Shown piece by piece: positions 32,744-51,394 of a DNA stretch of 52,709 nt. The notes below the pieces were generated by a model. That model did not search any database. It saw only the letters and a list, made by a program, of their open reading frames with translations, and was not told the DNA's origin. The translations under genes and the position numbers were made by a program. The stretch comes from Candidatus Faeciplasma avium (GTDB lineage: Bacteria > Bacillota > Clostridia > Oscillospirales > Ruminococcaceae), in contig DVOL01000005.1 in assembly GCA_018713505.1 (NCBI GenBank), forward strand, positions 1-52,709, read 5' to 3'. Position 1 is the stretch's first letter. The number at the start of each line of letters is the position of its first letter.

Positions 32744-36523
<3,780 letters not shown>

Positions 36524-36565
36524 GCCCGGCTTTGATTGATACTAATAGTAAAGAGGGGTTGAACT

Positions 36566-39500
36566 TTGGATTTTAATGTTTTTGATTCAATAAAAATCGG
36601 ACTTGCTTCTCCCGAGCAGATAAGAAGCTGGTCGCACGGAGCGGTCGAGAAGCCCGAAACCATCAACTACCGTACCCAGAAGCCGGAGAGGGATGGACTG
36701 TTCTGCGAAAGGATATTCGGTCCTACCAAGGATTGGGAGTGTCACTGCGGAAAGTATAAGAAGATTCGCTTCAAGGGAAAGGTCTGCGAGCGCTGCGGAG
36801 TCGAGGTCACAAGGGCTAAGGTAAGGCGTGAGAGGATGGGTCACATCGAGCTTGCCGCCCCCGTATCCCATATATGGTACTTCAAGGGCACTCCCTCGAG
36901 AATCGGTCAGATGCTCGAAATCTCCCAGAAGAGGCTGGAGGAGGTTTTGTACTTCACCAAGTACATCGTCACCGACCCGGGAGAAACCAGCCTTGAGAAG
37001 AAGCAGATACTCAACGAGAGGGAGTATCAGGACGCCAGGGAGCGCTTTGAGGACAAATTCAAGGCGGGAATGGGCGCAGAGGCAATCAAGGTTTTGCTTC
37101 AGGAGATAGATGTCGAGGCTCTTGCCGCCGAGCTTAAAAACGAGCTGAAGGACCTCCAGCAGGGTCAGAAGAGGATAAAGCTCTTAAAGAGGCTTGAAAT
37201 CGTAGAGGCATTCAGGCTGTCCGGCAATCGTCCCGAGTGGATGATTCTGGATGTAGTGCCGGTAATTCCTCCCGAGCTAAGGCCTATGGTCCCGCTGGAC
37301 GGCGGAAGGTACGCCACCTCCGACCTAAACGACCTCTACAGAAGGGTTATAAACAGAAACAACCGTCTAAAGAGGATGCTGGAGCTTGAGGCTCCCGATA
37401 TAATCGTAAGAAACGAGAAGAGAATGCTCCAGGAGGCTGTCGACGCCCTCATCGACAACGGAAGGCACGGCCGCCCGGTCGTAGGACCTAACAACAGGGC
37501 GTTCAAGTCGCTTTCGGACATGCTAAAGGGCAAGCAGGGAAGATTCCGTCAGAATCTTTTGGGAAAGAGAGTCGACTATTCGGGAAGGTCTGTTATAGTA
37601 GTAGGTCCCGAGCTGAAGATGTATCAGTGCGGTCTGCCCAAGGAGATGGCTTTAGAGCTGTTCAAGCCCTTTGTAATGAAGAGGCTTGTCGATACAAATC
37701 CTCAGATTAACATAAAGTCTGCCAGAAAGATGGTAGAAAGAGGCAAGGACGAGGTCTGGGACGCTCTTGAGAATGTAATTCAGGGACATCCCGTCCTATT
37801 AAACCGTGCTCCGACGCTCCACAGGCTAGGAATCCAGGCGTTTGAGCCGGTCCTGGTAGAGGGAAGGGCGCTCAAGCTCCATCCTCTTGCCTGTACCGCA
37901 TACAACGCCGACTTTGACGGCGACCAGATGTCGGTCCATGTTCCGCTCAGCGTAGAGGCTCAGGCGGAGGCAAGATTTTTGATGCTTGCCGCTAACAACC
38001 TCCTAAAGCCTGCCGACGGCAAGCCTGTAACCGTCCCCACTCAGGACATGGTGCTTGGCTCCTATTATCTGACCCTTGAAAAGGAGGGCGAAAAGGGAGA
38101 GGGCAAGGTCTTTAGGGATGTCAACGAGGCTATGATGGCTTATCAGGCGGGAGTAGTCTCGCTCCAGGCAAAGATAAAGGTAAGAGTCACCCGTGGCACG
38201 GGGGACAGAAACCTCTCCAAGATAATCGACGCCACCGTGGGAAGGCTTATCTTCAACGAGAACATCCCGCAGGACCTGGGCTTTGTCGACAGGACGGACT
38301 CCTCCAAGCAGTTTGACCTTGAGATAGGCTTCCTGGTCAAGAAGAAGCAGTTAGGAAATATAATCGAGAGGTGTATAAGAAAGCACGGCACCACAAAGAC
38401 CAGCGAGGTGCTGGACAGCATCAAGGCGCTGGGCTTTAAGTACTCCACCAAGGCTGCGATAACCGTTGCGGTCTGTGACGCCGAGGTTCCTCCCGAGAAG
38501 AAGGATATCCTTGCCAACGCTGACAGGCTTGTTGATATTGTCGACAGGCAGTACAAGAGGGGACTTATCTCCCGTGCAGAGAAGTCGAACAAGTTTATAG
38601 AAATCTGGAGAAAGGCTACCGACGATGTCACAACCGCTCTTCAGAACAATCTCGACAGGTACAATCCGATATACATGATGTCCGACTCGGGAGCAAGAGG
38701 CTCCATAGCCCAGATAAGACAGCTCGCCGGCATGAGAGGACTTATTGCTAACACCTCGGGCGCCACGATAGAGATGCCTATAAGGGCAAACTACCGTGAG
38801 GGTCTTAACATCCTTGAGTATTTCATATCCTCAAGAGGCGCAAGAAAGGGTCTTACCGACACCGCTCTTAGAACGGCGGACTCTGGATATCTGACAAGGC
38901 GACTTGTAGATGTCTCGCAGGATGTCATAATCACTGAGGAGGACTGTGGCACCCACGAGGGCATCGAGGTCTTTGAGATTAAAAACGGCAACGAGATGAT
39001 AGAGCCGTTTGCCGAGAGACTCATAGGAAGATTCCTTGTCGAGGATTTAAAGGACCCCGCAACCGGCGAGGTCGTCATGTCGCACGACAGGCTTATGACC
39101 GCTCAGGACTCCGAAAAGGTCATCGCCTTCCTAGAGAGCCATGGCAGGGACAGAATTGCTATTCGCTCCGTCTTAGGCTGCAAGTCAAAGAGGGGAGTCT
39201 GTGCAAAGTGCTACGGCATGGACCTTGCACATTCCACCGTCGTCTCGGTAGGCGAGGCTGTCGGAATCATCGCAGCCCAGTCTATAGGCGAGCCGGGTAC
39301 TCAGCTCACGATGAGAACCTTCCACACGGGAGGAGTCGCCTCGGCTGAGGATATCACTCATGGTCTGCCCAGAGTCGAGGAGCTGTTCGAGTCAAGAAAG
39401 CCCAAGGGCGCAGCCATACTTGCAAGAATCGGCGGCGTTGTCTCGATAGAGGAGATAAAGAAGTCAAGAGTCATAGTCATAACCAACACCGAGACGGGCG

Positions 39501-40147
39501 AGGTCGAGCAGTACGCCATTCCGTGGGACTACAGGATAAAGGTCAAGGAGGGCGACGAGGTCAAGGCAGGAGACGAGCTGACAGCCGGCTCCAAGAACCC
39601 AGCCGATGTCCTTGCAATACTCGGCCCCGAGGCGGTAAGAAACTATATCATCACCGAGGTCCAGAAGGTCTACAGGCTCCAGGGTGTTGATGTAAACGAC
39701 AAGCATATCGAGGTAATAACCCGCCAGATGCTCCGCAAGGTTAAGATTGAGGACTCCGGCTCCAGCTACCTGCTGCCCGGAACCCTTGTGGATAAGCATG
39801 AGATAGAGGAGATAAACGCCCAGATACAGCAGGAGATTGACTCCGGCGATGAGTCTGCAAGGCTCATTACCACCAGCCCGGTCATCCAGGGTATCACAAA
39901 GGCGTCCTCAAGCTCTGAGAGCTTCCTGTCCGCCGCCTCCTTCCAGGAGACTACAAGGGCGCTCACGGACGCTGCCATAAAGGGCAAGACAGACCATCTC
40001 CAGGGTCTAAAGGAGAATGTAATTATCGGTAAGCTGCTCCCTGCCGGAACAGGTATGGCTGTCTACAACAACGCCCAGGCGGTTAAGAACGAGAGCTACA
40101 TCGAGCACGCCGCAGCCGCTCACGAGGCGGCGCAGGACAACGCCTGA
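36566..40147 (+). CDS. rpoC: DNA-directed RNA polymerase subunit beta'
   Basis: Zn finger [20 protein letters not shown], catalytic NADFDGDQM, ~1190 aa. TTG start after AGAGGGG. Confidence 0.98.
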
Positions 40148-40182
40148 GGCTGTCCCCGCAAACTAATAGGCATATAAAGCTT

Positions 40183-40218
40183 CACCCTCCGTCAATGCTG
40201 GCGGAGGGTGATTTTTTA
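40183..40218 (+). terminator. rho-independent terminator after rpoC
   Basis: 9-bp stem caccctccg (40183-40191) / cggagggtg (40202-40210), followed by atttttt. Confidence 0.7.
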
Positions 40219-40241
40219 GGCTGGCTTTTTGCTTTAGAGCT

Positions 40242-41687
40242 TTATTTACTGCTAAACGGCGTCTGAAGCACCGAGACGGCGTCCTGAATGGTCTTTTCCA
40301 TAGCCTCACGGCCGTACTTGTCGACCTCGGCCTTGTTCTTCTCACCGTGGGTGAGACAGCCGGCGCCGCCTATGCAGCCGCCTACGCAGGCCATGCCCTC
40401 GATGAAGTTGGCGTCAAGAACATTCTTCTGCTTCTTTAGGAGTGCGATTCTGCACTGCTCGATGCCGTCGCAGGAGATTCCCTTGAGGGTAAAGTCGCCG
40501 TCAAGACCCTGCTCCTTTAGACCCTCGGCAACTGCGTCTGACAGTCCGCCGCAGCGAGCGAATATTCTTCCGAAGTAGCTTGCGTTGTCAAGAACGCCCT
40601 CCTCTAGGGTAGTGATGTCGATGTCCCTGGAGTCAAACAGAGCCTGAAGCTCCTCGAAGGTCAGCACCGAGTCGACATATGGCTTGACCTCCTCACGCTG
40701 GATTTCCATCTTCTTTGCGGTGCAGGGACCTATGAAGATTATCTTTGCGTTCTTGGTGGTCTGCTTGATGTATCTGGCAATTGTAGCCATCGGGGAGAGG
40801 TTGTGCGAGATGTACTGCTTTAGCTCGGGGAAGCTCTTTTCAATGTAGCTTACAAAGCCGGGGCAGCAGGAGCTTGTCAAGAAGCCCTTTTCGTAAAGCT
40901 CCTTTGATTCTGCCTGAGCCACCATGTCTGCTCCCAGAGCAGCCTCGACCACGGTATGGAAGCCGAGCTTTTTAAGACCCGTTACCACCTGACCGAGCTT
41001 GGCATAGGTAAACTGGCTGGAAATCGAGGGAGCTACAACGGCGTAGAGCTTGTAGTTTCTTCCCTGCTGGCTCTTTTTGAGCAGGTCGATTACATTTATC
41101 ATGTAGGACTTGTCCATTATAGCTCCGAACGGGCACTGATATACGCAGGCGCCGCAGGATATGCACTTAGAGTTGTCGATGGTGGCTGCCTTGTGCTCGT
41201 TCATTGATATCGCCTTTATCTTGCAGGCGTTCTGGCAGGGACGGACCCTTGAAACAATTGCGGTGTACGGGCAAACCTTAGAGCAGGCTCCGCACTCACG
41301 GCATTTGGACTTGTCGATATGTGCGACATGGTTTTCGTCGAAGGATATCGCTCCGAATCTGCAAACATCCTCGCACCTGTGGGCAAGACAGCCACGGCAG
41401 GCGTTTGTAACCTCATAGCCGCCGACAGGGCACTCGTCGCAGGCGATGTCTATTACCTCGATGACATTGGGGTTTTCCTTGTCTCCGCCCATCGCTATCT
41501 TGACTCTCTCCTCAAGTATAGCCCTCTCCTTGTACACGCAGCAGCGCATTGTGGGGGTGTTTCCCGGGACTATCATCTTGGGAATGTCAAGAATCTTGTC
41601 GTAGAGGGTGTCATTCCAGGAGAGCCTTGCGACCTCTCTTAGCACCTTGTATTTAAGGTGCTGGACCTTTGTATCGAATTTTCTCAT
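40242..41687 (-). CDS. [FeFe]-hydrogenase homologue with N-terminal multi-[4Fe-4S] domain (HfsD / HydA2-like)
   Basis: Fe-S motifs CRGCLAHRCEDVC, CRECGACSKVCP and CISCGACVYQCP. H-cluster motifs TSSCCPGF (P1), FIGPCTAKKME (P2) and EGMACVGGCIGGAGC (P3). GAGGTG SD. Confidence 0.85.
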   Translation of the reverse strand: MRKFDTKVQHLKYKVLREVARLSWNDTLYDKILDIPKMIVPGNTPTMRCCVYKERAILEERVKIAMGGDKENPNVIEVIDIACDECPVGGYEVTNACRGCLAHRCEDVCRFGAISFDENHVAHIDKSKCRECGACSKVCPYTAIVSRVRPCQNACKIKAISMNEHKAATIDNSKCISCGACVYQCPFGAIMDKSYMINVIDLLKKSQQGRNYKLYAVVAPSISSQFTYAKLGQVVTGLKKLGFHTVVEAALGADMVAQAESKELYEKGFLTSSCCPGFVSYIEKSFPELKQYISHNLSPMATIARYIKQTTKNAKIIFIGPCTAKKMEIQREEVKPYVDSVLTFEELQALFDSRDIDITTLEEGVLDNASYFGRIFARCGGLSDAVAEGLKEQGLDGDFTLKGISCDGIEQCRIALLKKQKNVLDANFIEGMACVGGCIGGAGCLTHGEKNKAEVDKYGREAMEKTIQDAVSVLQTPFSSK

Positions 41688-41718
41688 AGCGTTTCACCTC
41701 ATCCTTGGAATTTATGAA

Positions 41719-42891
41719 TCAGAAGTAGCTTACCTTGACCTTCTTGCCCATCCTCTGGAGGCACTTTGTCAGCTCCTCCACTAGATTCATCTTTATGCTG
41801 AAATTAATCGGCAGGTCGGGGTTCTGGTGAGCGGGATTGATCGCCCGTCCGACATAGAAGTTGATGTCGGTAGCCTCCTCGAACAAAAGCCGGCTTATGA
41901 GCGAGGCGCCGTCTCTTTTGTAGCTCCACTGCTCGTACGCCTCGTTGTTCTCAAGGTAATCCCTGGCGTACTCCAGCACCTTGTTTACTGTTATGACTCC
42001 CTCGGTTACAAGGTCAACGCCCTCAAGCTCTGCTATGGGAGGGACATCGGAGCGCTCAAAGTTGAGAGACGCCTTTAACGGCTTGCCGAGATACTTTGCG
42101 GCTATCGAGGAGGTTGTTCCGCCGCAGATTATGTGCTTTCCCTCCTTGGAGAAGAACAGCGACATCATCCTGTTGCAGTCGTCCCGATTTGAGGGAGGAC
42201 CGAACAGAAGGTTCATAGGCTCCCTCTTTCTGACCCTTACCACGCAGGCTGTGGCGTCGTCTCCCGGCTGGTTGCCGTAGAGCTTGTTGCACTCGTCCAC
42301 AAGCACGGTGGAGAGATTCTTGGCGGTGTAGCCCACCAGCGAAAGAGGCTCCAGGAAGCTGATTATATCCTCTCTTTTCCAGCCGAAGTTAAACGCCGTG
42401 CCTATTCCCGCATGAGGGCAGCCGTCGCTCATGGCGACGATAAAGTCGTTCTCGCAGAGCTTTACCGAGGACCTGAGTATCTTCTTCCCGCCGATGTTAA
42501 GCTCTGTGGTGGGATAGTCGTAGTTCTGACCGTCCCTGAGCATTATCACCTTGGGATTGTCGTACTGGATGATTTCGGCGGTTTCGTTGTTGCAAAGCCG
42601 GATTATCGTAAAGGTGGAGTACGCCACCCCTCTCACCGAGCAAATTGGCAGAGTTGCGGCTATAGTCTCTACGCAGTCCTCCAGCGAAAGACCCTCAGAC
42701 ATCATGGTGGAGATTATCTTCGAGGTCAGGGTGGAGAGAATGCTCGCCTTTACGCCGCTTCCCAGACCGTCGGCAAGCACTATTACGGTGGAGCTGTCGT
42801 CCTGCGAGACTATGTCGACATGGTCGCCGCAGAGCTGCTCGCCGTAGTGATTTATACTTTTATAGCCTATATCGGCGCAGAGGTCATTCAT
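41719..42891 (-). CDS. PP2C / SpoIIE-family protein phosphatase with uncharacterised C-terminal domain (HfsC-like)
   Basis: Metal-binding Asp motifs CGDHVD, LADGLGSG and MSDG. The ATG overlaps the hydS stop (ATGAATGA). Confidence 0.85.
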   Translation of the reverse strand: MNDLCADIGYKSINHYGEQLCGDHVDIVSQDDSSTVIVLADGLGSGVKASILSTLTSKIISTMMSEGLSLEDCVETIAATLPICSVRGVAYSTFTIIRLCNNETAEIIQYDNPKVIMLRDGQNYDYPTTELNIGGKKILRSSVKLCENDFIVAMSDGCPHAGIGTAFNFGWKREDIISFLEPLSLVGYTAKNLSTVLVDECNKLYGNQPGDDATACVVRVRKREPMNLLFGPPSNRDDCNRMMSLFFSKEGKHIICGGTTSSIAAKYLGKPLKASLNFERSDVPPIAELEGVDLVTEGVITVNKVLEYARDYLENNEAYEQWSYKRDGASLISRLLFEEATDINFYVGRAINPAHQNPDLPINFSIKMNLVEELTKCLQRMGKKVKVSYF

Positions 42892-44569
42892 TGCTTATGC
42901 TCTCCTTAAGCTTGGCAAGCGCAATCTTAGTTTCGGCGGCAGTCTCGCCTAGAAGCGAGGCTATCTCCTGAACTATACGCATCTGCTTGTCTACCACCTT
43001 GTCCGCAATCTCGACGGTCTGGCGGCTTATGCTCTCCTTCTTTTCACGCTCGGTCTCCTCGTCGGTGACATCACGCATAATGCATATCAAGAGGTGGTAC
43101 TCCGAGTCGTGGATAATGGTCTGCTCGATGTATTTTTTGTACTCGGCGAGATATACTCTCTCGTTTTTGATGTTCCTGCCGGACTTCAAAACCTCCATGA
43201 ACGGCTTGGGGTCGAGGATTCTTATGACCTGGTCCCCAAGGACATCGCTTGCCTGGCGGATGTTCATAATCCTTCTTGCGGTGTTGTTTATCTGCTGGAC
43301 CTCAAGGCTCTCGTTTAGAAGTATGATGCCGTTGGGAGAGTTTGAAACTATGTTGTCTGAGAAGCTCTCCGCCTTGTCCTTCAGGAAGGGCAGGCACATC
43401 GAGATGTCCGCCTTGCCCTGATAGATGGCGATTGCCTTCTCACGGCAGGTATTGTAGCCGCAGGAGCCGCAGTTAAGCTCGTCTGACGGACGGAACTTGC
43501 CCATCTGGCGGAGAATCGACATTATCTCGGACTCCGAGGGAGTGCTGGAGCCGGTGTCTATCGGCATGAAAGCCTTTCTTATCTCGCCGGAGGACATATT
43601 CTCGACCTCGAAATCTAGCCTTCCAGCAAAGGAGGATACTGCTGAGTAGTCCTTGACGGGGGAGCGGTGGTACTTTTCCATTACCGGCCCGCCAACGCAG
43701 CTTCCCACGCAGGAGGACATCTCGATAAAGCAGTTATGTATGCTTCCGTTTTCGATATCCCTCAGGGCGGCCATGCAGTTTTCAACGCCGTCTATGGCGA
43801 GGTAGGTGTACCTTGAGGAGGTCTCCTCCATGGTTTCCTTCATCGTTTTAAGGATTCCCCCGGTGGTGGGGAAGAATCTTGCACGGCTGTGCTCCTCGTG
43901 GTCTATCTCGTTTTCAAGGGCTATACCCTCGGCGTTCAGCCAGCCGGTAAGCTCCTCGAAGGTAAGAACAGCGTCGACTATTCCGGGATACTTTCCAGCC
44001 TCGTCCTTTTTGGCTACGCAGGGACCTATAAACACCGTCTTGGCGTTGGGATACCGCTTTTTTATGTCGGTGCAGTGAGCCTGCATCGGGGAGAGGACAT
44101 CGGCAAGATAGCAAAGAAGGTTCGGAAAATACTTCTGGATAAGAAGATTTACCGAGTGACAGCAGGAGGAGATTATAATATCCCTGCTTTCCTCCTTTAT
44201 AAGCCTCTCATACTCCGACTTTACCATCGAGGCGCCGACGGCGGTCTCCTCGACATCATAAAAGCCCAGCTTTTTAAGAGCCTGCCTCATCTGGCTGATT
44301 CCTGCGCCGTAGTTTGCGACGAAGGAGGGAGCCAGGCTGACAATGACCGGGTCGCCGCCCTGGAGCAGAACCTTTACCTTCTCCGTCTCGTCGACTATCT
44401 CCTTGGCGTTCTGCGGACATACGACAAAGCACTGTCCGCACAGGATGCACTCGTCCTCGATTATATGCGCCTGATTCCCGGAGAATCTAATCGACTTCAC
44501 CGGGCAGTGGCGGATGCACTTATAGCAGTTTTTGCAGTTTGATTTTTTCAGGGTCAGACATTTGCCCAT
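42884..44569 (-). CDS. hydS: putative sensory [FeFe]-hydrogenase homologue with C-terminal 4-Cys and PAS domains (HydS / HfsB-like)
   Basis: CKNCYKCIRHCP and CILCGQCFVVCP (two [4Fe-4S] motifs). Variant H-cluster motifs ISSCCHS, FIGPCVAKKDE and EMSSCVGSCVGGP. Then CGSCGYNTC...C, a PAS-like segment (SNSPNGIILLNESLEVQQINNTARRIM...) and a coiled-coil tail. Confidence 0.85.
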   Translation of the reverse strand: MGKCLTLKKSNCKNCYKCIRHCPVKSIRFSGNQAHIIEDECILCGQCFVVCPQNAKEIVDETEKVKVLLQGGDPVIVSLAPSFVANYGAGISQMRQALKKLGFYDVEETAVGASMVKSEYERLIKEESRDIIISSCCHSVNLLIQKYFPNLLCYLADVLSPMQAHCTDIKKRYPNAKTVFIGPCVAKKDEAGKYPGIVDAVLTFEELTGWLNAEGIALENEIDHEEHSRARFFPTTGGILKTMKETMEETSSRYTYLAIDGVENCMAALRDIENGSIHNCFIEMSSCVGSCVGGPVMEKYHRSPVKDYSAVSSFAGRLDFEVENMSSGEIRKAFMPIDTGSSTPSESEIMSILRQMGKFRPSDELNCGSCGYNTCREKAIAIYQGKADISMCLPFLKDKAESFSDNIVSNSPNGIILLNESLEVQQINNTARRIMNIRQASDVLGDQVIRILDPKPFMEVLKSGRNIKNERVYLAEYKKYIEQTIIHDSEYHLLICIMRDVTDEETEREKKESISRQTVEIADKVVDKQMRIVQEIASLLGETAAETKIALAKLKESISNE

Positions 44570-44572
44570 TTG

Positions 44573-44833
44573 CTACACTCCTCCGGCTTTGATAGGTTTA
44601 AGTATTTTTTCGTTGAAAAATTCCTTGAAGCTCTCCTTGGTCACTCCGCTTATTACCTCGTCGTCTACCGTGACGGTCACGCCGAAGCGGTTGCACATGC
44701 CGGTGCAGAAGCTTCCGGCAAGAGTGACATCGTTTTCAAGGTGGTGCTCCTCGACAGCCTCCTGCAAAAGCCTGACTATCTCCTCGGAGCCTTTGAGATG
44801 GCAGGAGCTGCCAACGCATATCTGTACAATCAC
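44573..44833 (-). CDS. thioredoxin-like [2Fe-2S] ferredoxin-domain protein (NuoE/HfsA-like), copy 2
   Basis: 86 aa with Cys pattern C6-x4-C11...C43-x3-C47 (VGSSCHLKG ... FCTGMC). GTG start after GGAG. The stop lies 3 nt before the hydS ATG. Confidence 0.8.
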   Translation of the reverse strand: MIVQICVGSSCHLKGSEEIVRLLQEAVEEHHLENDVTLAGSFCTGMCNRFGVTVTVDDEVISGVTKESFKEFFNEKILKPIKAGGV

Positions 44834-44935
44834 TTATATCACTCCATTAATGCTTGGTCGTCTAAAATCGGAGCAAGGCGTGATATGAACTATCCCGCCT
44901 GCGTCAGGTTATTGGCATAAAGCCGAGCCAAGGGG

Positions 44936-45196
44936 CTACTCCCCGTCATCCTCGGGAGGGAGCTTAGCTAATATCTCACGGTTGAAGAAATCCTCTACTG
45001 TCTCCGGGCTGACGGAGAAGAAGCTGTCGTCCACGGTGACGCAGACTCCCTTCTGGCACTGTCCCATGCAGAAGGTGCCGCCAAGCTCCACCCTGTCGCC
45101 AAGACCGTTGTCCTGAATGAGCCTTTGGAGCGAGCCTACGACCTGCCTGGAGCCTTTGATATGGCAGGAGCTGCCTATGCATACTGTAACATTCAT
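44936..45196 (-). CDS. thioredoxin-like [2Fe-2S] ferredoxin-domain protein (NuoE/HfsA-like), copy 1
   Basis: 86 aa with the same four-Cys pattern (IGSSCHIKG ... FCMGQC). Paralogue of the adjacent gene. Confidence 0.8.
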   Translation of the reverse strand: MNVTVCIGSSCHIKGSRQVVGSLQRLIQDNGLGDRVELGGTFCMGQCQKGVCVTVDDSFFSVSPETVEDFFNREILAKLPPEDDGE

Positions 45197-45336
45197 ATGT
45201 ATATCCTCTCTTTAAAGCGACCGGCGGGAAAGCTCTTTATTTTCAAGGAGCCTGCCTGCCGGTCGGTCATATCCTGCCTGCGGGGTGCCGGGAGAGAAGG
45301 AGCGCCCAGCCTCCTGACACCCCGGTCAGCGCCGGC

Positions 45337-46086
45337 TTATTCGTAATCTACAACATCTACCCAGGAGAGAAGGAATTCCCTTTCCTCCTTGTTGCCCTTA
45401 ACCGACTGCGAGGCGGCTACAATGGGCATCCACTTCTGGACATACTGCTTTGCAGTGTCGCTCTTGCGGCAGAACATATCAAGATACTTTGCCGCAAGCT
45501 CGGTGTTTCCCGAGAGGCAGAAAAGAAGGTATGTCCTGGCGGCGTCTGCGGAGGCGTTTCCCTGAGTGGCGTGCGCCCAGTCAAGGACATAGAGCCTGCC
45601 GTCCCCGGTGACGATTATGTTGGAGGGGTTAAAGTCGCCGTGGCAGAGCTTTTTGTGCTTGGGCATAGCCTCAAGACGGGTTCTTAGGTCGTATCTTGTG
45701 GTAGCGTCAAGCTCAGCCTCGCCGATTTTGCGGTTCATCTTGTCCCTTAGCTTGTTGAGGTTCTGGCAGGTGTGGGACTGGACCTCTATCTGCAAATCGA
45801 CGAACATCTCGAGGTACTTGTCGATATTGTCGGGGTCCTCCTCCATGATGGAGGCGAGGGTCTTGCCCTCTATGTACTCGGTGACTATCGCCCACTTGCC
45901 GTCTACCTTGCAGACCTCGATAACCTTGGGGATATTAAGACCTGTCTCCTCGACTCTGGCGGTGTTAAGAGCCTCGTTTAGGATGTCGGCCTTGGAGAAG
46001 CTCTCGTCGAATACCTTAATGCAAAGGTCGCCGTCACGGTAGAGCGTCTTAGAATTCCTGACTGCAATAACTCTGTCTAGATTCAT
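45337..46086 (-). CDS. protein-kinase-like-fold phosphotransferase (APH / choline-kinase family), putative protein kinase
   Basis: N-lobe Lys in LCIKVFDE, catalytic loop CHGDFNPSNII, metal-binding YVLDWAHA. AGGAGGA sits 7 nt upstream of ATG 46086, inside the 15-nt gap after adhE. Confidence 0.75.
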   Translation of the reverse strand: MNLDRVIAVRNSKTLYRDGDLCIKVFDESFSKADILNEALNTARVEETGLNIPKVIEVCKVDGKWAIVTEYIEGKTLASIMEEDPDNIDKYLEMFVDLQIEVQSHTCQNLNKLRDKMNRKIGEAELDATTRYDLRTRLEAMPKHKKLCHGDFNPSNIIVTGDGRLYVLDWAHATQGNASADAARTYLLFCLSGNTELAAKYLDMFCRKSDTAKQYVQKWMPIVAASQSVKGNKEEREFLLSWVDVVDYE

Positions 46087-46101
46087 CACTTTATCCTCCT
46101 A

Positions 46102-48807
46102 TTACTTGGTTTTCTTGCCCTTCTTGGCGTATATCTGCTTGCTGGCGTCAGCGCCCGAGCTTTCAAAGTCGTGTATCTGGTCGGGCATCTTCTTCTCCTC
46201 GAAGTGCTTGCCGTAGTAGGCGTTGAGGTACATGCTCTTTATCTCGCTGATAAGAGGATATCTCGGGTTAGCGCCTGTGCACTGGTCGTCAAACGCCTGC
46301 TCGGTCATAGCGTCAAGCCTGTCAAGGAAGTCCTTTTCGTCGATGCCGTAGTCCTTGATGGTCGGCTTGATTCCGACTCTTGCCTTTAGCTCGTTGATTG
46401 CCGCTATGAGGTTTTCAAGCTTCTCCTCGTCGGTGCTTCCGCCAAGACCCAAAGCGTCTGCAATCTCGGCGTACCTTGCCAGGGTGTGAGGATGGTCGTA
46501 CTGCGAGAAGGTGCCCATCTTAACGGGAGACTCGCAGGCGTTGAATCTCAGGACCTCCTCAATCATGAGGGCGTTGGCTACGCCGTGTGCGATGTGGTGG
46601 AAGGCGCCCAGCTTGTGAGCCATCGAGTGGCAGACGCCCAGGAAGGCGTTTGCAAACGCCATACCTGCCATTGTAGCGGCGTTAGCCATCTTCTCACGGG
46701 CGATAACATCGGTCTGTCCGTTGTCATAGGCTGAGGGCAGGTACTTGAATATGGTCTTTAGAGCCTGGATTGCAAGACCGTCGGTGTAGTCTGTAGCCAT
46801 TACGGAGGCGTATGCCTCAAGAGCATGGGTTACAGCGTCGATACCCGAGGCGGCAGTAAGTCCCTTGGGAGCGGACATATGGAAGTCGGTGTCGATAATA
46901 GCCATGTTGGGAAGGAGCTGATAGTCTGCAAGAGGATACTTTATGCCGCTGTCCTGGTCGGTGATGACGGCAAAGGGAGTGACCTCAGAGCCTGTACCGG
47001 CAGAGGTGGGTATTGCTATGAAGTAAGCCTTCTCTCCCATCTTGGGGAAGGTGTAAACCCTCTTTCTGATGTCGATAAAGCGCATAGCCATATCCATGAA
47101 GTCGACCTCGGGATGCTCATAAAGCACCCACATAATCTTTGCAGCGTCCATGGCGGAGCCGCCGCCGAGTGCGATTATGCAGTCCGGCTTGAAGGAGGAC
47201 ATCTGCTTTGCTCCTGCCTGTGCGGAGGCAAGGGTGGGGTCCGGCTCGACATCGAAGAAGGTGGTGTGAGCGATTCCAAGCTGGTCAAGCTTGTCGGTTA
47301 TCGGCTTGGTGTAGCCGTTGTGATACAGGAAGCTGTCGGTTACTACGAAGCAGCGCTGCTTGTTCATCACCGATTTAAGCTCGTCAAGAGCGACGGGAAG
47401 GCAGCCCTTCTTGATGTATACCTTCTCCGGGGCACGGAACCAAAGCATATTTTCTCTCCTCTCAGCGACTGTCTTGATGTTGATAAGGTGCTTTACTCCT
47501 ACATTCTCGGAGACCGAGTTTCCTCCCCAGGAGCCGCAGCCCAGAGTGAGGGAGGGAAGGAGCTTGAAGTTGTACAAATCGCCGATTCCGCCGTGAGAGG
47601 AGGGAGTGTTGACAAGAACACGGCAGGTCTTCATCCTCGCCTGGAACCTCTCAAGCTTGTCCTGAGCGGTGAGGGTGTTCAGGTAGATGGAGGAGGTGTG
47701 TCCGTAGCCGCCGTCTGCAACCAGCTGCTCAGCCTTTGCAAGGGCGTCGTCAAAGCTCTTTGCGTGATACATGGCAAGAACGGGGGAGAGCTTCTCGTGA
47801 GCGAACTCCTCGGAGATGTCGACCGACTCGACCTCGCCTATAAGTATCTTGGTGCCCTCAGGAACGCTTACGCCGGAGAGCTGCGCTATCTTTGCGGCAG
47901 GCTGACCGACTATCTTTGCATTGAGGGAGCCGTTTATGATTATCGTCTTTCTTACCTTGTCAAGCTCGTCGGGAGCTAGGAAGTAGCAGCCTCTGTAGGC
48001 AAACTCCCTCTTGGCTGCGGCATATACGCTGTCAAGAACTATGCAGGACTGCTCCGAGGCGCATATCATGCCGTTGTCGAAGGTCTTGGAGTGGATTATG
48101 GAGTTTACAGCCAGGATTATGTCTGCGCTGTCGTCTATAATTGCGGGAGTGTTTCCTGCGCCGACTCCAAGAGCAGGCTTTCCTGAGGAGTAAGCAGCCT
48201 TTACCATTCCGGGACCGCCGGTAGCCAAAATAGTGTCAGCCTCCTTCATAAGAAGGTTGGTCATCTCAAGGGAGGGGATGTCTATCCACTCGATTATGCC
48301 CTCTGGAGCGCCCGCCTTCACGGCAGCCTCTAGGACTATCTTGGCAGCCTCGATGGTGCAGCCCTTGGCTCTCGGGTGGGGGCTTATGATGATGGCGTTT
48401 CTAGTCTTGAGGGCGATAAGGCACTTGAATATGGCGGTAGAGGTCGGGTTGGTGGTGGGTATTACCGCCGCTATGACGCCTATAGGCTCGGCGACCTTCT
48501 TGATGCCGTACTCCTTGTCCTCCTCGATGACTCCGCAGGTCTTGGTGTTCTTGTAGGCGTTGTAGATGTACTCGGAGGCATAATTGTTCTTTATGACCTT
48601 GTCCTCCACTACGCCCATGCCGGTTTCCTCGACCGCCATCTTAGCAAGGGGAAGCCTTTGCTTGTTTGCGGCTGAAGCGGCGGCAAAGAATATCCTGTCG
48701 ACCTGCTCCTGGGTAAAGCTGGCAAACTTTTCCTGTGCCTTGCGCACCGAGGCGATAACCTCCTCAAGACGCTCAACACTGTCTACGATTCTGCGTTCGT
48801 TGTTCAT
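46102..48807 (-). CDS. adhE: bifunctional acetaldehyde-CoA / alcohol dehydrogenase
   Basis: 901 aa: N-terminal aldehyde dehydrogenase half (catalytic-Cys region FDNGMICASEQS) plus C-terminal iron-type ADH half (LGGGSAMDAAK, His-rich metal site CHSMAHKLG). Confidence 0.96.
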   Translation of the reverse strand: MNNERRIVDSVERLEEVIASVRKAQEKFASFTQEQVDRIFFAAASAANKQRLPLAKMAVEETGMGVVEDKVIKNNYASEYIYNAYKNTKTCGVIEEDKEYGIKKVAEPIGVIAAVIPTTNPTSTAIFKCLIALKTRNAIIISPHPRAKGCTIEAAKIVLEAAVKAGAPEGIIEWIDIPSLEMTNLLMKEADTILATGGPGMVKAAYSSGKPALGVGAGNTPAIIDDSADIILAVNSIIHSKTFDNGMICASEQSCIVLDSVYAAAKREFAYRGCYFLAPDELDKVRKTIIINGSLNAKIVGQPAAKIAQLSGVSVPEGTKILIGEVESVDISEEFAHEKLSPVLAMYHAKSFDDALAKAEQLVADGGYGHTSSIYLNTLTAQDKLERFQARMKTCRVLVNTPSSHGGIGDLYNFKLLPSLTLGCGSWGGNSVSENVGVKHLINIKTVAERRENMLWFRAPEKVYIKKGCLPVALDELKSVMNKQRCFVVTDSFLYHNGYTKPITDKLDQLGIAHTTFFDVEPDPTLASAQAGAKQMSSFKPDCIIALGGGSAMDAAKIMWVLYEHPEVDFMDMAMRFIDIRKRVYTFPKMGEKAYFIAIPTSAGTGSEVTPFAVITDQDSGIKYPLADYQLLPNMAIIDTDFHMSAPKGLTAASGIDAVTHALEAYASVMATDYTDGLAIQALKTIFKYLPSAYDNGQTDVIAREKMANAATMAGMAFANAFLGVCHSMAHKLGAFHHIAHGVANALMIEEVLRFNACESPVKMGTFSQYDHPHTLARYAEIADALGLGGSTDEEKLENLIAAINELKARVGIKPTIKDYGIDEKDFLDRLDAMTEQAFDDQCTGANPRYPLISEIKSMYLNAYYGKHFEEKKMPDQIHDFESSGADASKQIYAKKGKKTK

Positions 48808-48849
48808 CTTATGACCATTCCTTTCTTTGATGAAGGTATTACTGACCGT

Positions 48850-49455
48850 TTAATCCTGCCTGCAAAGATGTGCCAGGGAAAGTGCGAGGTCCTCATACCT
48901 CACCGAGACATTCTTAGGCACCCTGAGCCTGCAGGGAGCAAAGCACCATATCGCAGTTATCCCGCACTTTATCAGCAGGGAGGCAACCTCCTGCGCAGAC
49001 TCCTTCGGGACGGTGATTATCCCTATCCTTATATCCTCCAGCGTGCAGATATTCTGCAGGGAATCCATAGAGTATATCGGCTTTCCGGAGGAGGAGGAGG
49101 TCTGCCACAGCCCGGCGTCCCTGTCAAAGGCGGCTGCGATTTCGATGCCGTATTCAGAAAAGCCGGAGTAGTCAAGAAGAGCCCGTCCTAGCTTTCCTGC
49201 GCCGACAAGCACAGCTTTTTTTATGTTCCCCGAGCCAAGGCAATGCTCGATGCTGGAAATAAGCTCGCTCGTGACATAGCCGACCCTGGGTCTGCCCTCG
49301 CCGCTGACTGCGCCGAGGTCCTTTCTGACCTGAACCTCGCCGAAGCCCAAAGCCCTCGATATCGAGGTTGCCGAGACAGTTTCCGATTCAAGCTGCTTCA
49401 GATAGCCTAGATACGCTGGCAGACGGCCCAGCGTCGCCTTCGGGACCATGCTCAT
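48850..49455 (-). CDS. rex: redox-sensing transcriptional repressor Rex
   Basis: Winged helix VPKATLGRLPAYLGYL and Rossmann motif LVGAGKLGRAL. Start taken at ATG 49455 (or 49449) because the promoter's predicted TSS falls inside the longer track ORF. Confidence 0.88.
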   Translation of the reverse strand: MSMVPKATLGRLPAYLGYLKQLESETVSATSISRALGFGEVQVRKDLGAVSGEGRPRVGYVTSELISSIEHCLGSGNIKKAVLVGAGKLGRALLDYSGFSEYGIEIAAAFDRDAGLWQTSSSSGKPIYSMDSLQNICTLEDIRIGIITVPKESAQEVASLLIKCGITAIWCFAPCRLRVPKNVSVRYEDLALSLAHLCRQD

Positions 49456-49492
49456 CGCTAATGCACTTCTCCTGTTTTCTTTTCTTAATGAC

Positions 49493-49521
49493 ATGATAGC
49501 ATATTTTTTTGGGGATTTCAA
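49493..49521 (-). promoter_or_regulatory. rex-adhE promoter
   Basis: The minus strand reads TTGAAA (49516-49521), a 17-nt spacer, then TATCAT (49493-49498). Confidence 0.5.
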
Positions 49522-49554
49522 TAGGCTTTAATAGATTTTTACATCTTCTACGAT

Positions 49555-49573
49555 TCGATAATATATTTATCGA
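49555..49573. promoter_or_regulatory. inverted repeat upstream of the rex promoter (candidate operator)
   Basis: TCGATAA-tatat-TTATCGA, with perfect 7-bp arms. Confidence 0.35.
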
Positions 49574-49686
49574 TAATGCTATTAGCTATTGAGCAGTATC
49601 ACCAAACCGACCATGCCGCAGGGTCACGGCGGGAGTAAAAAAAGAAGCTTATCAGCCTCTTCCCTGATATGCTCATATGCTAAATC

Positions 49687-49719
49687 AAAAAAATGTGCCC
49701 CGGCTTTCGTCGGGACACA
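49687..49719 (-). terminator. rho-independent terminator after the ferredoxin gene
   Basis: The minus strand reads ugugucccg-acgaaagc-cggggcaca (one G-U pair), followed by uuuuuuu. Confidence 0.65.
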
Positions 49720-49820
49720 TAAAACCTATCGGTTTTAAAACCTTGCGGTTTTCTTGGGGAGCGTCTGCCCCCCCTTTTTTTGAATGTACTCAGCCTAGGA
49801 TGGCTGACCCGGTTTCGGGA

Positions 49821-50192: not shown

Positions 50193-51371
50193 TTGACTGG
50201 AGTGAGGACGCTGCTGGGTGCTGTTGTTAAGAGGGCGCTTGCGTATATTAAGAGGCTGGACAAGCTGCTTTTGCTGCTTGCCGGCTGCTGCAGTGCGATA
50301 GGGATAACGCTCATATACTCGCTTGTGATAAACAGCAGGTCGCAGAGGATAACCGACGCCGCCGTCGACTCGCAGACGGTCAAGGTCCAGCTTATAGCCG
50401 CTCTTGTCGGGCTATTTCTGGCGCTTATCATCGCCGTGTTTGACTACAGATGGTTTTCAAGGCTCTGGTTTTTGTACCTCCCGGCGGCGCTCGGGCTGAC
50501 GCTTCTTACCTTTACGGGGCTGGGGATCTCCGGGCTGGAGGGCGCAGACGACCGTGCGTGGATAGACCTCGGCTTCATTACCGTCCAGCCGGCGGAGTTT
50601 TTAAAGCTGGCATATATCCTCTCACTGTCGTACCACTGCTTTAGGACAAAGGAGTTTTTCAACAATCCCCTAAACATACTCGCCCTGCTTGTCCACGGAG
50701 GGCTTCCGGCTGCTCTTGTAATGCTCCAGGGGGACGACGGCACAGCGATGGTATTTATAATCATATTCCTGGCGATAGTCTTTGCGGCAGGGCTTTCCTG
50801 GAAGTATATCCTCGGTGCGGCGGCTTTGGCTCCCGCAGTGTTCTGGCTCCTGTGGACATATTACCTCCAGCCGGTGCACAAAAACAGGATACTAAGCGTG
50901 ATATTCCCCGAAAAATACTCAAACGCCGACCTGCTTTACCAGACCAGCCGCTCGCTTATCGCCCTAGGCTCGGGACAGCTTGAGGGCAAGGGGCTTTTCG
51001 GAGGGGATTACACCTATGTCCCGGTCTGCCACAGCGACTTTATATTCTCCTACGCCGGGCAGACGCTTGGCTTTATCGGCTGTCTGGCTATCGTTTTGCT
51101 GATTACGCTTTTCTGCCTCAGGCTTTTGCTCAGCGGCATGAGGAGTCAGGACGAGCTTGGAAGGTATATCCTAGTCGGGATATTCTCCTACTTTTTAACC
51201 CACTCGGTCTTAAATATCGGGATGGTGACCGGCATCACCCCGGTAATAGGCATCCCGCTGCCCTTTTTCTCTGCGGGAGGCACGGCTATGCTATCCTCCT
51301 GGCTGGCGGTGGGGCTTGCGCTGTCGGTGTATTATCATCATCAAAGATTTGACACAATCTTCAAAAATTAA
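50193..51371 (+). CDS. FtsW/RodA/SpoVE (SEDS) family peptidoglycan glycosyltransferase
   Basis: ~10 TM helices and conserved blocks (GDDGTAMVF, SDFIFSYAGQ, PLPFFSAGGTAM). The start is uncertain: TTG 50193 or GTG 50202. Confidence 0.88.
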   Translation: MTGVRTLLGAVVKRALAYIKRLDKLLLLLAGCCSAIGITLIYSLVINSRSQRITDAAVDSQTVKVQLIAALVGLFLALIIAVFDYRWFSRLWFLYLPAALGLTLLTFTGLGISGLEGADDRAWIDLGFITVQPAEFLKLAYILSLSYHCFRTKEFFNNPLNILALLVHGGLPAALVMLQGDDGTAMVFIIIFLAIVFAAGLSWKYILGAAALAPAVFWLLWTYYLQPVHKNRILSVIFPEKYSNADLLYQTSRSLIALGSGQLEGKGLFGGDYTYVPVCHSDFIFSYAGQTLGFIGCLAIVLLITLFCLRLLLSGMRSQDELGRYILVGIFSYFLTHSVLNIGMVTGITPVIGIPLPFFSAGGTAMLSSWLAVGLALSVYYHHQRFDTIFKN

Positions 51372-51394
51372 ATAGGGAAAGGACGGCTTGGATA

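Follow-up and report, generated by a model that had tools for sequence, protein, structure and literature searches.

Gene hydS of Candidatus Faeciplasma avium, which lies in the 52,709-nt stretch of contig DVOL01000005.1 analyzed here (the window), raises the question of whether an [FeFe]-hydrogenase with substitutions in all three of its active-site motifs is a bulk catalyst or a sensor and whether it is of an already known kind. A first, sequence-only reading had labeled the product a HydS-like sensory protein. That label was borne out by 72% identity over 99% of the length to HydS of R. albus 7, by shared gene neighbors, and by the group C/M2f architecture known from earlier work (PMC13104023; PMC10055695). 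The features discussed below are listed in Table 1.

Table 1. Features of the hydS locus, with positions in the window and the evidence for each
Feature	Position	Strand	Evidence
hydS, 561-aa group C (M2f) putative H2-sensing [FeFe]-hydrogenase	42884..44569	-	ORF, Pfam domains, R. albus 7 HydS identity, AF2 model
N-terminal F-domain, residues 8-55	44405..44548	-	Fer4 matches (Pfam)
H-domain, residues 61-300, H-cluster ligands C137, C184, C287, C291	43670..44389	-	PF02906
P1 ISSCCHS, residues 133-139	44153..44173	-	Translation, CpI alignment
Ala156 codon, CpI proton-pathway S319 position	44102..44104	-	CpI alignment
P2 FIGPCVAKKDE, residues 180-190	44000..44032	-	Translation, CpI alignment
P3 EMSSCVGSCVGGP, residues 283-295	43685..43723	-	Translation, CpI alignment
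Cx2Cx4Cx16C [4Fe-4S] domain, residues 365-394 (C367, C370, C375, C392)	43388..43477	-	PF04060
PAS domain, residues 405-501	43067..43357	-	Weak Pfam PAS, PAS_9; AF2 sub-model
J-alpha-like long helix, residues 502-560	42890..43066	-	Secondary structure of AF2 models
PP2C/SpoIIE-family Ser/Thr phosphatase, 390 aa	41719..42891	-	PF07228, E=2.4e-13
hydA2, 481-aa monomeric group B1 [FeFe]-hydrogenase	40242..41687	-	TIGR04105
Thioredoxin-like [2Fe-2S] ferredoxin, 86 aa	44573..44833	-	PF01257, E=8e-9
Second thioredoxin-like [2Fe-2S] ferredoxin, 86 aa	44936..45196	-	PF01257, E=2e-6
APH/RIO/Bud32-like small protein kinase, 250 aa	45337..46089	-	PF01636, E=1e-17; RIO1, Pkinase matches
adhE, bifunctional acetaldehyde-CoA/alcohol dehydrogenase, 901 aa	46102..48807	-	Aldedh, Fe-ADH, ADH_Fe_C domains
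rex, redox-sensing repressor	48850..49455	-	Put_DNA-bind_N, CoA_binding domains
Candidate sigma-70 promoter TTGAAA-17-TATCAT, extended -10 TG	49493..49521	-	Consensus scan, 10/12 matches
GC-rich 13-bp hairpin between convergent rpoC and hydA2	40182..40211	.	Sequence scan

Domain layout and active-site motifs of HydS

An AlphaFold (AF2) model of the full-length protein, one of the checks proposed with the sequence-only reading, was of high confidence (pLDDT of 94.2) and had the fold of [FeFe]-hydrogenases, which were its top Foldseek matches. The Pfam family Fe_hyd_lg_C (PF02906) matched well beyond chance, with an E value of 1.2e-51. In the F-domain, CxxCxxCxxxC occurs twice (C12, C15, C18, and C22; C41, C44, C47, and C51), giving sites for two [4Fe-4S] clusters. 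To measure conservation, we used a family set of 123 sequences spanning 33 to 63% identity to HydS, in which all eight of these cysteines were at least 90% conserved and the four H-cluster ligands were invariant. The site is complete, with the four Cys ligands plus K187 and E190.

HydS was aligned with phmmer to CpI and to T. kivui HydA1, and the positions were confirmed by translation. The alignment paired the three segments with the true P1 to P3 motifs, so that both earlier claims about them, substitutions in all three and retention of the cluster-ligating cysteines, held. In P1, SSCCHSV pairs with TSCCPGW of CpI; C299 and C300 are kept, and P301, G302, and W303 are replaced by His, Ser, and Val. 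Cys136 thus stands at the proton-relay position (C299) and Cys137 is the cubane ligand (C300), followed by His138, with the codon CAC at 44156-44158. In P2 (GPCVAKKDE with MPCTSKKFE), M353 is replaced by Gly182 and Asp189 occupies the F360 position, with C355, K358, and E361 kept. In P3 (EMSSCVGSC with EVMACHGGC), M497 is replaced by Ser285. The ligands C137, C184, C287, and C291 therefore correspond to C300, C355, C499, and C503 of CpI.

Loss of the conserved Met residues had been proposed as a hallmark of sensory proteins. The substitutions are real, but loss of M353 is not diagnostic: since HydA2, the catalytic group B1 paralog encoded in the same operon, also reads FIGPC, Gly at this position is not sensor specific. 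Catalytic CpIII and CpII carry Gly or Thr there as well (PMC10055695). In group C, the M353 position is held by Gly, Ser, or Thr, and the residues at the M497 and C299 positions vary (PMC10055695); a set of 122 distant cluster representatives agreed with this.

Judging from the alignment to CpI, the canonical proton path is interrupted at Ala156, independently of the P1 His, which had been suggested to alter it. The S319 position is Ala in 75 and Ser in 15 of the 122 representatives, with Ser kept in the paralog HydA2, and E282 of CpI is not conserved in HydS. The proton-relay Cys is kept (Cys136), although most group C proteins lack it. Given that Cys is found at this position in 17% of the group C sequences of HydDB (PMC10055695) and in 42 of the 122 representatives, replacement of the relay Cys is typical of group C but not defining. 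The usual argument that a missing conserved Cys slows turnover is therefore inapplicable to HydS, which, going by its residues, might turn over faster than TmHydS of Thermotoga maritima.

Downstream of the H-domain, the family "Putative Fe-S cluster" (PF04060) matched with an E value of 8e-11, and its four cysteines were invariant among the 123 sequences. The Pfam PAS score (20.7 bits) was below the cut-off of 22.6, but the PAS-like fold noticed earlier was substantiated by an AF2 sub-model of residues 396 to 561 (pLDDT of 92.9), for which the best Foldseek matches were PAS/LOV domains with a J-alpha helix (E value of about 5e-7). Both elements had been described as additions to the hydrogenase; they are present but are not extras, since both define group C. 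Groups C and D are unified by the atypical C-terminal four-Cys [4Fe-4S] site (PMC13104023). The tail that had been read as a coiled coil is a helix of residues 502 to 560, with a kink at G541 in the full-length model and none in the isolated one. Conservation in the family peaks in its residues 525 to 550 (column entropy of 0.98 bits versus 2.38 for the H-domain). It gave no meaningful family match in Pfam at E values up to 10 or in a PDB sequence search, and it is presumed to be an output or docking surface.

Group assignment and the His138/Asp189 pair

HydS combines the features of group C: the H-domain ligands, the F-domain, the C-terminal four-Cys site, and the PAS domain. It also has a small residue at the M353 position, a residue other than Met at the M497 position, and linkage to signaling genes, with an APH-like kinase gene upstream of hydS and a PP2C gene that shares 8 nt with it, an arrangement conserved in 80 loci and also in distant relatives. 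Replacement of the relay Cys, a further trait of the group, was not found. HydS of R. albus is classed as group C (PMC6776011), and our placement was made by proxy, through the 72% identity to that protein. The closest named genomes were gut Oscillospiraceae, Acutalibacteraceae, and Ruminococcus MAGs, with HydS identities of 73 to 79%. The anatomy of HydS is the defining anatomy of the group C (M2f) putative sensory [FeFe]-hydrogenases, an already known kind.

Other assignments were rejected. HydS scored 210.8 bits on the group B1 model TIGR04105 (cut-off of 450) and 89.7 bits against the group A models (TIGR02512, NF040762, and NF040763; cut-off of 405.95), the motifs of which are substituted. 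Group D is ruled out by the PAS domain, which that group lacks. One close homolog (P0072) is labeled a sensor histidine kinase, but HydS had no HisKA or HATPase_c match; helix 502-560 contains no His, and by Foldseek the resemblance to kinases is confined to the PAS and J-alpha part. To our knowledge, H2-dependent signaling has been shown biochemically for no group C protein, and none of these sensory hydrogenases has a solved structure or a proven signaling mechanism. Our literature search found no biochemical characterization of R. albus HydS or HfsB, and reviews term the sensory role of group C "putative" (PMC8924675).

The P1 His had been called atypical. This is true of the wider family, in which only 9 of the 122 distant representatives had it, every time together with Asp189, but not of its own clade, in which it was invariant (120 of 120 close homologs and 80 of 80 species loci, as well as HydS of R. 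albus). Cys136, His138, and Asp189 were strictly conserved in 200 relatives. By these alignments, the R. albus-type clade has the His138/Asp189 pair as its signature. Among the papers searched, none described it and no hydrogenase paper had P1 motif strings containing His, and the pair is the sole mildly new point of the locus.

His138 adjoins Cys137, and the two residues of the pair flank Cys137 and Cys184. Speculatively, what the pair probably adjusts is the [4Fe-4S]H subcluster, how mobile the P1 loop is, or a proton route nearby. It could act as a hydrogen bond or charge pair that shifts the potential of [4Fe-4S]H, or it could loosen the P1 loop so that Cys136 caps the distal Fe in an Hinact-like state; such capping, if true, would set the H2 threshold or the O2 tolerance of the sensor. 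That the pair and the retained Cys136 together make up a functional element peculiar to the clade of R. albus-type HydS is a tentative suggestion, which we hold to be possible rather than probable.

Gene cluster, transcription, and role of HydS

The cluster runs in the order rex, adhE, kinase-like gene, two small 2Fe-2S genes, hydS, PP2C phosphatase gene, and hydA2, and this eight-gene order was conserved in 80 gut Clostridia species genomes. The overlap between the hydS stop and the phosphatase start suggests translational coupling, and the adjacency of the two genes persists in distant relatives at 34 to 39% identity. The C-terminal half of the phosphatase gave no meaningful family match (Pfam at E values up to 10 and PDB sequence search). 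HydA2 scored 573.7 bits on TIGR04105 (cut-off of 450), is 77% identical to HydA2 of R. albus, and is presumed to be a ferredoxin-dependent catalytic enzyme. The ferredoxin gene immediately upstream of the sensor gene (Cx4Cx31Cx3C) occupies the hfsA position. The small kinase has the catalytic loop HGDFNPSN, and its R. albus counterpart is annotated as "phosphotransferase." The likely start of rex is the ATG at 49455, with the mechanical ORF extending to 49521; Rex of R. albus has 200 aa.

Contigs from chicken-gut metatranscriptomes, which have no strand information and could contain DNA, covered the whole rex-to-hydA2 cluster, and one of 8,227 nt ran from hydA2 to adhE (seven of the eight genes). 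Contig ends fell at 49469-49474 in four metatranscriptomes, by the predicted promoter, and at 40221-40233 in three runs, by the hairpin that is likely a bidirectional terminator. These data are consistent with a single transcript. Scans for a Rex operator (Clostridial consensus with up to three mismatches and TGTKAA-N4-TTMACA with up to two) gave only chance-level matches, none of them near the operon. In R. albus, the eight-gene cluster is 90- to 111-fold down-regulated at low H2 (PMC10838669; PMC6776011), and since the co-culture stoichiometries equaled earlier low-H2 ones, the authors concluded that the H2 level drives the regulation (PMC6776011). In T. saccharolyticum, deletion of hfsB raised adhE expression and ethanol yield, the high-ethanol phenotype being absent in strains without hfsC or hfsD (PMC5707799).

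We consider it likely that the gene is an ortholog of R. albus hydS, the equivalent of Thermoanaerobacterium hfsB, and that it encodes a group C (M2f) sensor rather than a bulk catalyst. By analogy, H2 would react slowly at an H-cluster detuned by the changes M497 to Ser, S319 to Ala, and P301 to His and by the lack of a conserved E282. A redox or conformational change would then reach the phosphatase by way of the C-terminal Fe-S/PAS/helix module, and the phosphatase, opposing the kinase, would set the phosphorylation state of a target. High H2 would induce the operon and shift fermentation to ethanol and ferredoxin-dependent H2 production. H2-free HydS would restrain the phosphatase, which the T. 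saccharolyticum genetics fit. Against the proposed signal route counts the finding that H2 does not reduce the C-terminal cluster in TamHydS (PMC13104023).

HydS might instead join HydA2 and the two small 2Fe-2S proteins in a heteromeric Hfs-type hydrogenase as a structural or electron-transfer subunit and serve chiefly in catalytic H2 production, with the PAS domain and the phosphatase only modulating. RNA contigs covering hydS together with hydA2 and both ferredoxin-like genes, the full ligand set with the C299-equivalent Cys, and the reported need of the hfs operon for H2 production in T. saccharolyticum (PMC8924675) speak for this. However, hydrogenase activity rose when only hfsB was deleted (PMC5707799), Ala156 and the lack of a conserved E282 interrupt the canonical proton pathway, one locus (L086) has the hydS-PP2C pair without an adjacent hydrogenase, and the C-terminal helix rather than the H-domain is the most conserved part of HydS, all of which make the subunit role unlikely.

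Somewhat less likely still is a role in which the Fe-S clusters sense O2 or the redox state of the cell (reduced ferredoxin or NADH), with an H-cluster site that is vestigial or just a redox cofactor. The three accessory [4Fe-4S] sites, the two neighboring 2Fe-2S proteins, rex at the head of the operon, and the unresponsive cluster of TamHydS would suit it. Yet the H-cluster ligands and the K358 and E361 equivalents are nearly invariant among the 123 sequences, which speaks for a working H-cluster, TmHydS shows H2 turnover and has a normal [2Fe] subcluster bound (PMC10055695), and the R. albus co-culture data were attributed to H2. Decay of a hydrogenase paralog without function of its own, which the substitution of several residues important in group A catalysis might suggest, is effectively refuted by conservation and expression, since the ORF is intact and occurs in hundreds of species genomes, Cys136, His138, and Asp189 are strictly conserved, the gene is present in gut metatranscriptomes, and the AF2 model is of high confidence.

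The sensor reading bears on a wider matter, as group C sensors are thought to decide between H2 release and ethanol in gut and rumen Clostridia, a choice with consequences for methane emission and the gas balance of the gut. The locus adds nothing new in kind. It offers a clean case, a chromosomal copy, seen in gut metatranscriptomes, from a lineage abundant in the chicken gut, and it gives mutagenesis of R. albus-type HydS two concrete targets, the His138/Asp189 signature and the ultra-conserved C-terminal helix.

Comparison with known systems

The nearest known system is that of R. albus 7, the HydS of which (WP_013483411, pRUMAL01; Zheng et al. 2014, J Bacteriol, as cited in PMC5707799 and PMC6776011) has the same domain order and the same P1 core, SSCCHSVN, including the His. 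The order from rex to hydA2 is also the same, and the 8-nt overlap recurs between the annotated CDSs of HydS and the phosphatase. The P3 motifs differ (SSCVGSCV here versus SACNGSCI), and the R. albus cluster lies on a 420-kb plasmid, whereas the one here is chromosomal, faces rpoC in convergent orientation, and belongs to an uncultured member of the Clostridia from the chicken gut. The hfsB gene of T. saccharolyticum is described as homologous to R. albus hydS, with a link to adhE expression established by genetics, and a PAS domain was the reason for suspecting the hfs hydrogenase of being a regulator (PMC5707799). TsHfsD is a group B hydrogenase (PMC8924675), like HydA2 here. However, hfsABCD comprises four genes, with no rex, adhE, or kinase gene inside, and the likeness is drawn from its description.

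TmHydS (group C; Chongdar 2018; PMC10055695) shares the F-domain, H-domain, C-terminal [4Fe-4S] site, and PAS domain, as well as Gly (G177) and Ser (S267) at the M353 and M497 positions, respectively, and its canonical proton pathway is not conserved either. It differs in having Ala (A131) at the C299 position, where HydS has Cys136, and Tyr (Y223) at the F417 position, where HydS has Phe233. TamHydS of Thermoanaerobacter mathranii (group D/M2e; PMC8163306, PMC13104023) shares the N-terminal clusters and the atypical C-terminal [4Fe-4S] cluster but belongs to a different phylogenetic group and lacks the PAS domain found here. HydA2, of the CpIII and ToHydA types, is 33% identical to HydS, with an ungapped P1 loop of equal length (SSCC) and FIGPC in common, but it keeps Pro after the ligand Cys, Met at M497, Ser at S319, and Glu at E279 and E282 and lacks the C-terminal Fe-S/PAS/helix module. 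Within one operon, sensor and catalytic paralog are thus separated by P301 to His, M497 to Ser, S319 to Ala, and E279/E282, and not by M353.

HydS, its catalytic paralog and the family background

Full-length HydS was modelled with AlphaFold2 from a 123-sequence alignment, giving a confident model (pLDDT 94.2, pTM 0.86). In a Foldseek search of the PDB, the top 50 matches were all group A [FeFe]-hydrogenases (50/50; TM of ~0.5, over F- and H-domains), and neither this search nor the PDB sequence search turned up a group C or D structure. Residues 396-561 modelled alone (pLDDT 92.9) matched PAS/LOV domains with a J-alpha helix, chimeric LOV-histidine kinases and the cytoplasmic PAS domain of CitA (E of ~5e-7), so the PAS-like fold suggested from sequence is real, and the tail then called a coiled coil is a long helix following the PAS domain (residues 502-560). 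HisKA and HATPase domains were not found in HydS, and the helix contains no His; the label "histidine kinase", which one source attaches to a close homolog, was rejected on these grounds.

Features of the HydS locus, with residue ranges where a protein segment is meant
Feature	Position	Strand	Residues	Details
rpoB-like ORF and rpoC	32744-40147	+
13-bp GC-rich hairpin	40182-40211			between convergent rpoC and hydA2
HydA2	40242-41687	-
PP2C phosphatase (SpoIIE family)	41719-42891	-
PP2C C-terminal half	41719-42210	-	~225-390	~165 aa
HydS ORF	42884-44569	-		561 aa, translation
HydS two ferredoxin-type 4Fe-4S motifs		-	8-55	Pfam
HydS [FeFe]-hydrogenase H-domain		-	74-295	PF02906, E=1.2e-51
HydS "Putative Fe-S cluster" domain		-	365-394	PF04060, E=8e-11
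HydS PAS		-	405-503	weak Pfam matches
HydS conserved helix stretch	42920-42997	-	525-550	KQMRIVQEIASLLGETAAETKIAL
Asp189 codon	44003-44005	-		CpI F360 position
His138 codon	44156-44158	-
Promoter-like site	49521-49493			TTGAAA-17-TATCAT
FtsW/RodA-family and galactokinase genes	50193-52657			other flank of cluster

Among PDB sequences, phmmer aligned HydS to CpI, the group A reference enzyme on which positions are numbered, and to other group A enzymes. The sequence-only reading had identified three segments as the H-cluster motifs P1 to P3, substituted throughout and with the cluster-ligating Cys kept. This observation is confirmed in every particular, since phmmer pairs all three segments with the genuine motifs and the motif coordinates and codons were verified via translation. 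Retained are C299 and C300 in P1, C355, K358 and E361 in P2, and C499 and C503 in P3.

H-cluster motifs and proton-path positions in CpI, HydS and HydA2, with residue counts among 122 family representatives
CpI motif or position	CpI	HydS	HydA2	Family
P1	FTSCCPGW	ISSCCHSV	TSSCCPGF
C299	Cys	Cys136		C 42, A 35, S 32
P301	Pro	His138		P 105, H 9, S 4, A 2
W303	Trp	Val
P2	MPCTSKKFE	FIGPCVAKKDE	FIGPCTAKKME
M353	Met	Gly182	Gly	G 110, S 11
P3	EVMACHGGC	EMSSCVGSC	EGMACVGGC
M497	Met	Ser285	Met	S 34, N 34, L 22, M 17
S319	Ser	Ala156	Ser
E279	Glu	Tyr120	Glu
E282	Glu	Leu123	Glu

HydA2, the second hydrogenase of the operon, is 33% identical to HydS, with an ungapped P1 loop. It clears the NCBIfam group B1 model TIGR04105 (573.7 bits; cut-off, 450), and the classifications conflict, as R. 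albus HydA2 (77% identical) is "group A1" in PMC6776011. Its P1 reads TSSCCP, and the description of group B (M2a) gives TSCCCP. Loss of the conserved Met residues near the H-cluster had been put forward as a hallmark of sensory proteins; Gly at the M353 position is common to the sensor and its catalytic paralog and is therefore no such hallmark. By this comparison, the sensor-specific substitutions are those at the P301, M497, S319, E279 and E282 positions, E279 being ambiguous because the phmmer alignment to CpI sets its helix one residue off (Glu119 at E279, Arg122 at E282). E282 and S319 are lost under both registers, and HydS, which retains the relay Cys, has lost the canonical proton path behind it. 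This contrast within one operon, which corrects the M353 idea, may be new, if modest.

Among HydDB group C sequences, just 17% have Cys at the C299 position and 43% have Ala; at M353, Gly accounts for 51%, Ser for 32% and Thr for 17%; residues vary at M497, where TmHydS has Ser, and E279, E282 and S319 are unconserved (PMC10055695). Our family sample, drawn from clusters at 50% identity, comprised 122 full-length representatives, 33 to 63% identical to the HydS query, among which the four C-terminal Cys showed no variation. Given these invariant Cys and the residue counts in the table, the features flagged as special in HydS are the family norm, with His138 as the sole exception.

The His138/Asp189 pair and the C-terminal helix

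The suspicion that a His in P1 is atypical was borne out across the family, where His138 is scarce (9/122 representatives), yet it is invariant in its own clade. The motif [ST]SCCHS was present in 120/120 HydS homologs at 77% identity or more and C136-H138-D189 in 80/80 species loci, while His138 and Asp189 co-occurred in 200/200 close relatives. The neighbour-joining tree placed the His-bearing representatives within one clade of 17 (10 with His, 7 without). Position 189 is Asp in every His-bearer and V, V, Q, H, Q, E and D in the seven His-less representatives of that clade, 6/7 being without Asp. Over all representatives, the association (9/9 versus 13/113) gave 4e-8 in Fisher's exact test, uncorrected for phylogeny. 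Leu142 and Met243 accompany the pair. The papers searched held no mention of this P1 motif, and the clade signature is possibly a new, modest finding. In CbA5H and the group B enzyme ToHydA, flexibility of the Cys-bearing P1 loop governs formation of the O2-protected Hinact state; by analogy, and speculatively, loss of the helix-initiating Pro beside the ligand Cys could affect Hinact formation.

The best-conserved stretch of the HydS family is formed by residues 525-550, with a mean column entropy of 0.98 bits versus 2.38 for the H-domain. It lies within the J-alpha-like helix that follows PAS, and searches of Pfam and of PDB sequences gave no match to it. This stretch is the best candidate for an output or docking surface, and such an ultra-conserved C-terminal helix might also be a modest novelty.

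Gene neighbourhood and RNA coverage

HydS orthologs at 73 to 79% identity were collected from 80 species-representative genomes (80 of at least 585 matches) of gut Oscillospiraceae, Acutalibacteraceae, Ruminococcus and unclassified Clostridia MAGs, with gene order essentially unchanged. At only 34 to 39% identity, a PP2C gene (~385 aa) still lies directly downstream, and one distant pair stands without a hydrogenase or adhE next to it; because the pairing persists to this extent, HydS and the phosphatase form the conserved core. In GCA_051658525.1 (JBOFMT010000079.1, 5642-8477), a His-bearing HydS (39% identity) and its PP2C are surrounded by genes for sugar utilisation, and neither a hydrogenase nor adhE nor 2Fe-2S genes adjoin them; evidently, the sensor and phosphatase can be coupled to other outputs. 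The PP2C C-terminal half has no Pfam match even at an E of ≤10, and the length of the protein is kept (382 to 390 aa) beside HydS of distant relatives. Here, the cluster is chromosomal and adjoins rpoBC, with a 1,259-aa ORF resembling rpoB immediately upstream of rpoC. HydE, HydF and HydG maturases were not found among those ORFs of the window that were scanned.

Near-identical sequence occurs in many chicken-gut metagenomes and also in chicken-gut metatranscriptomes, four of which were mapped on 40000-49800. One metatranscriptome contig of 8,227 nt covers 40233-47663, reaching from hydA2 into adhE. Contigs tend to end at 40221-40233, just past the GC-rich hairpin, and again at 49469-49474, just downstream of the promoter-like site, with zero depth beyond 49483 in two runs. 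Intergenic gaps within the operon range from -8 to 140 nt. The RNA coverage is consistent with a single transcript from rex to hydA2, the contigs being unstranded and the libraries possibly containing DNA. Although rex heads the operon, no Rex operator consensus was found upstream of it or at the promoter (49480-49720). A direct repeat, TTATCGA-N9-TTATCGA, lies in the same interval just upstream of the -35 element.

A putative H2-responsive scheme and the R. albus operon

Beyond the observed HydS architecture, phosphatase pairing and RNA coverage of the cluster, we infer the rest of a signalling scheme by reference to relatives. The detuned H-cluster of HydS would react with H2, and the C-terminal Fe-S/PAS/helix module would relay the change to the PP2C phosphatase, which, set against the APH/RIO-like kinase, would control a putative phosphoprotein and through it adhE and hydA2 expression. 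To our knowledge, signalling has been shown for no group C protein. The R. albus cluster is off at low H2 (PMC10838669, PMC6776011). In T. saccharolyticum, adhE expression and ethanol yield both go up when hfsB (the sensor) or hfsA is deleted, while strains without hfsC and/or hfsD yield as much ethanol as the wild type (PMC5707799); a model in which H2-free HydS would restrain the phosphatase fits these genetics. In the group D protein TamHydS, the C-terminal cluster is unresponsive to H2 (PMC13104023).

HydS could alternatively belong to a heteromeric Hfs-type hydrogenase as one of its subunits, but hfsB deletion raises hydrogenase activity (PMC5707799) and HydS-PP2C pairs exist without a neighbouring hydrogenase. 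It could also sense redox or O2 instead of H2, against which stands the near-invariant H-cluster site. Conservation and expression data exclude a decaying paralog.

The cluster has its closest counterpart in Ruminococcus albus 7, where HydS reportedly was named by Zheng et al. in 2014, work summarised and extended in PMC5707799, PMC10838669 and PMC6776011. A tblastn search of plasmid records found pRUMAL01 (72% identity over 99% of the HydS query), in which gene content and order match across all eight genes, encoding in turn Rex, AdhE, a "phosphotransferase", a pair of (2Fe-2S) ferredoxin-domain proteins, HydS, a SpoIIE-family phosphatase and HydA2. The description of the protein as HydS-like is supported by this identity and gene order. 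The phosphatase and HydS coding sequences overlap by 8 nt in R. albus 7, and the P1 core VISSCCHSVN is common to both HydS proteins. Removal of H2 by a partner organism down-regulates the R. albus "putative eight-gene cluster" 111-fold (PMC6776011). That cluster lies on a 420-kb plasmid, whereas the one described here is chromosomal. The system is already known: an uncultured member of the Clostridia from chicken gut here carries the HydS/HydA2/AdhE regulatory operon of R. albus.
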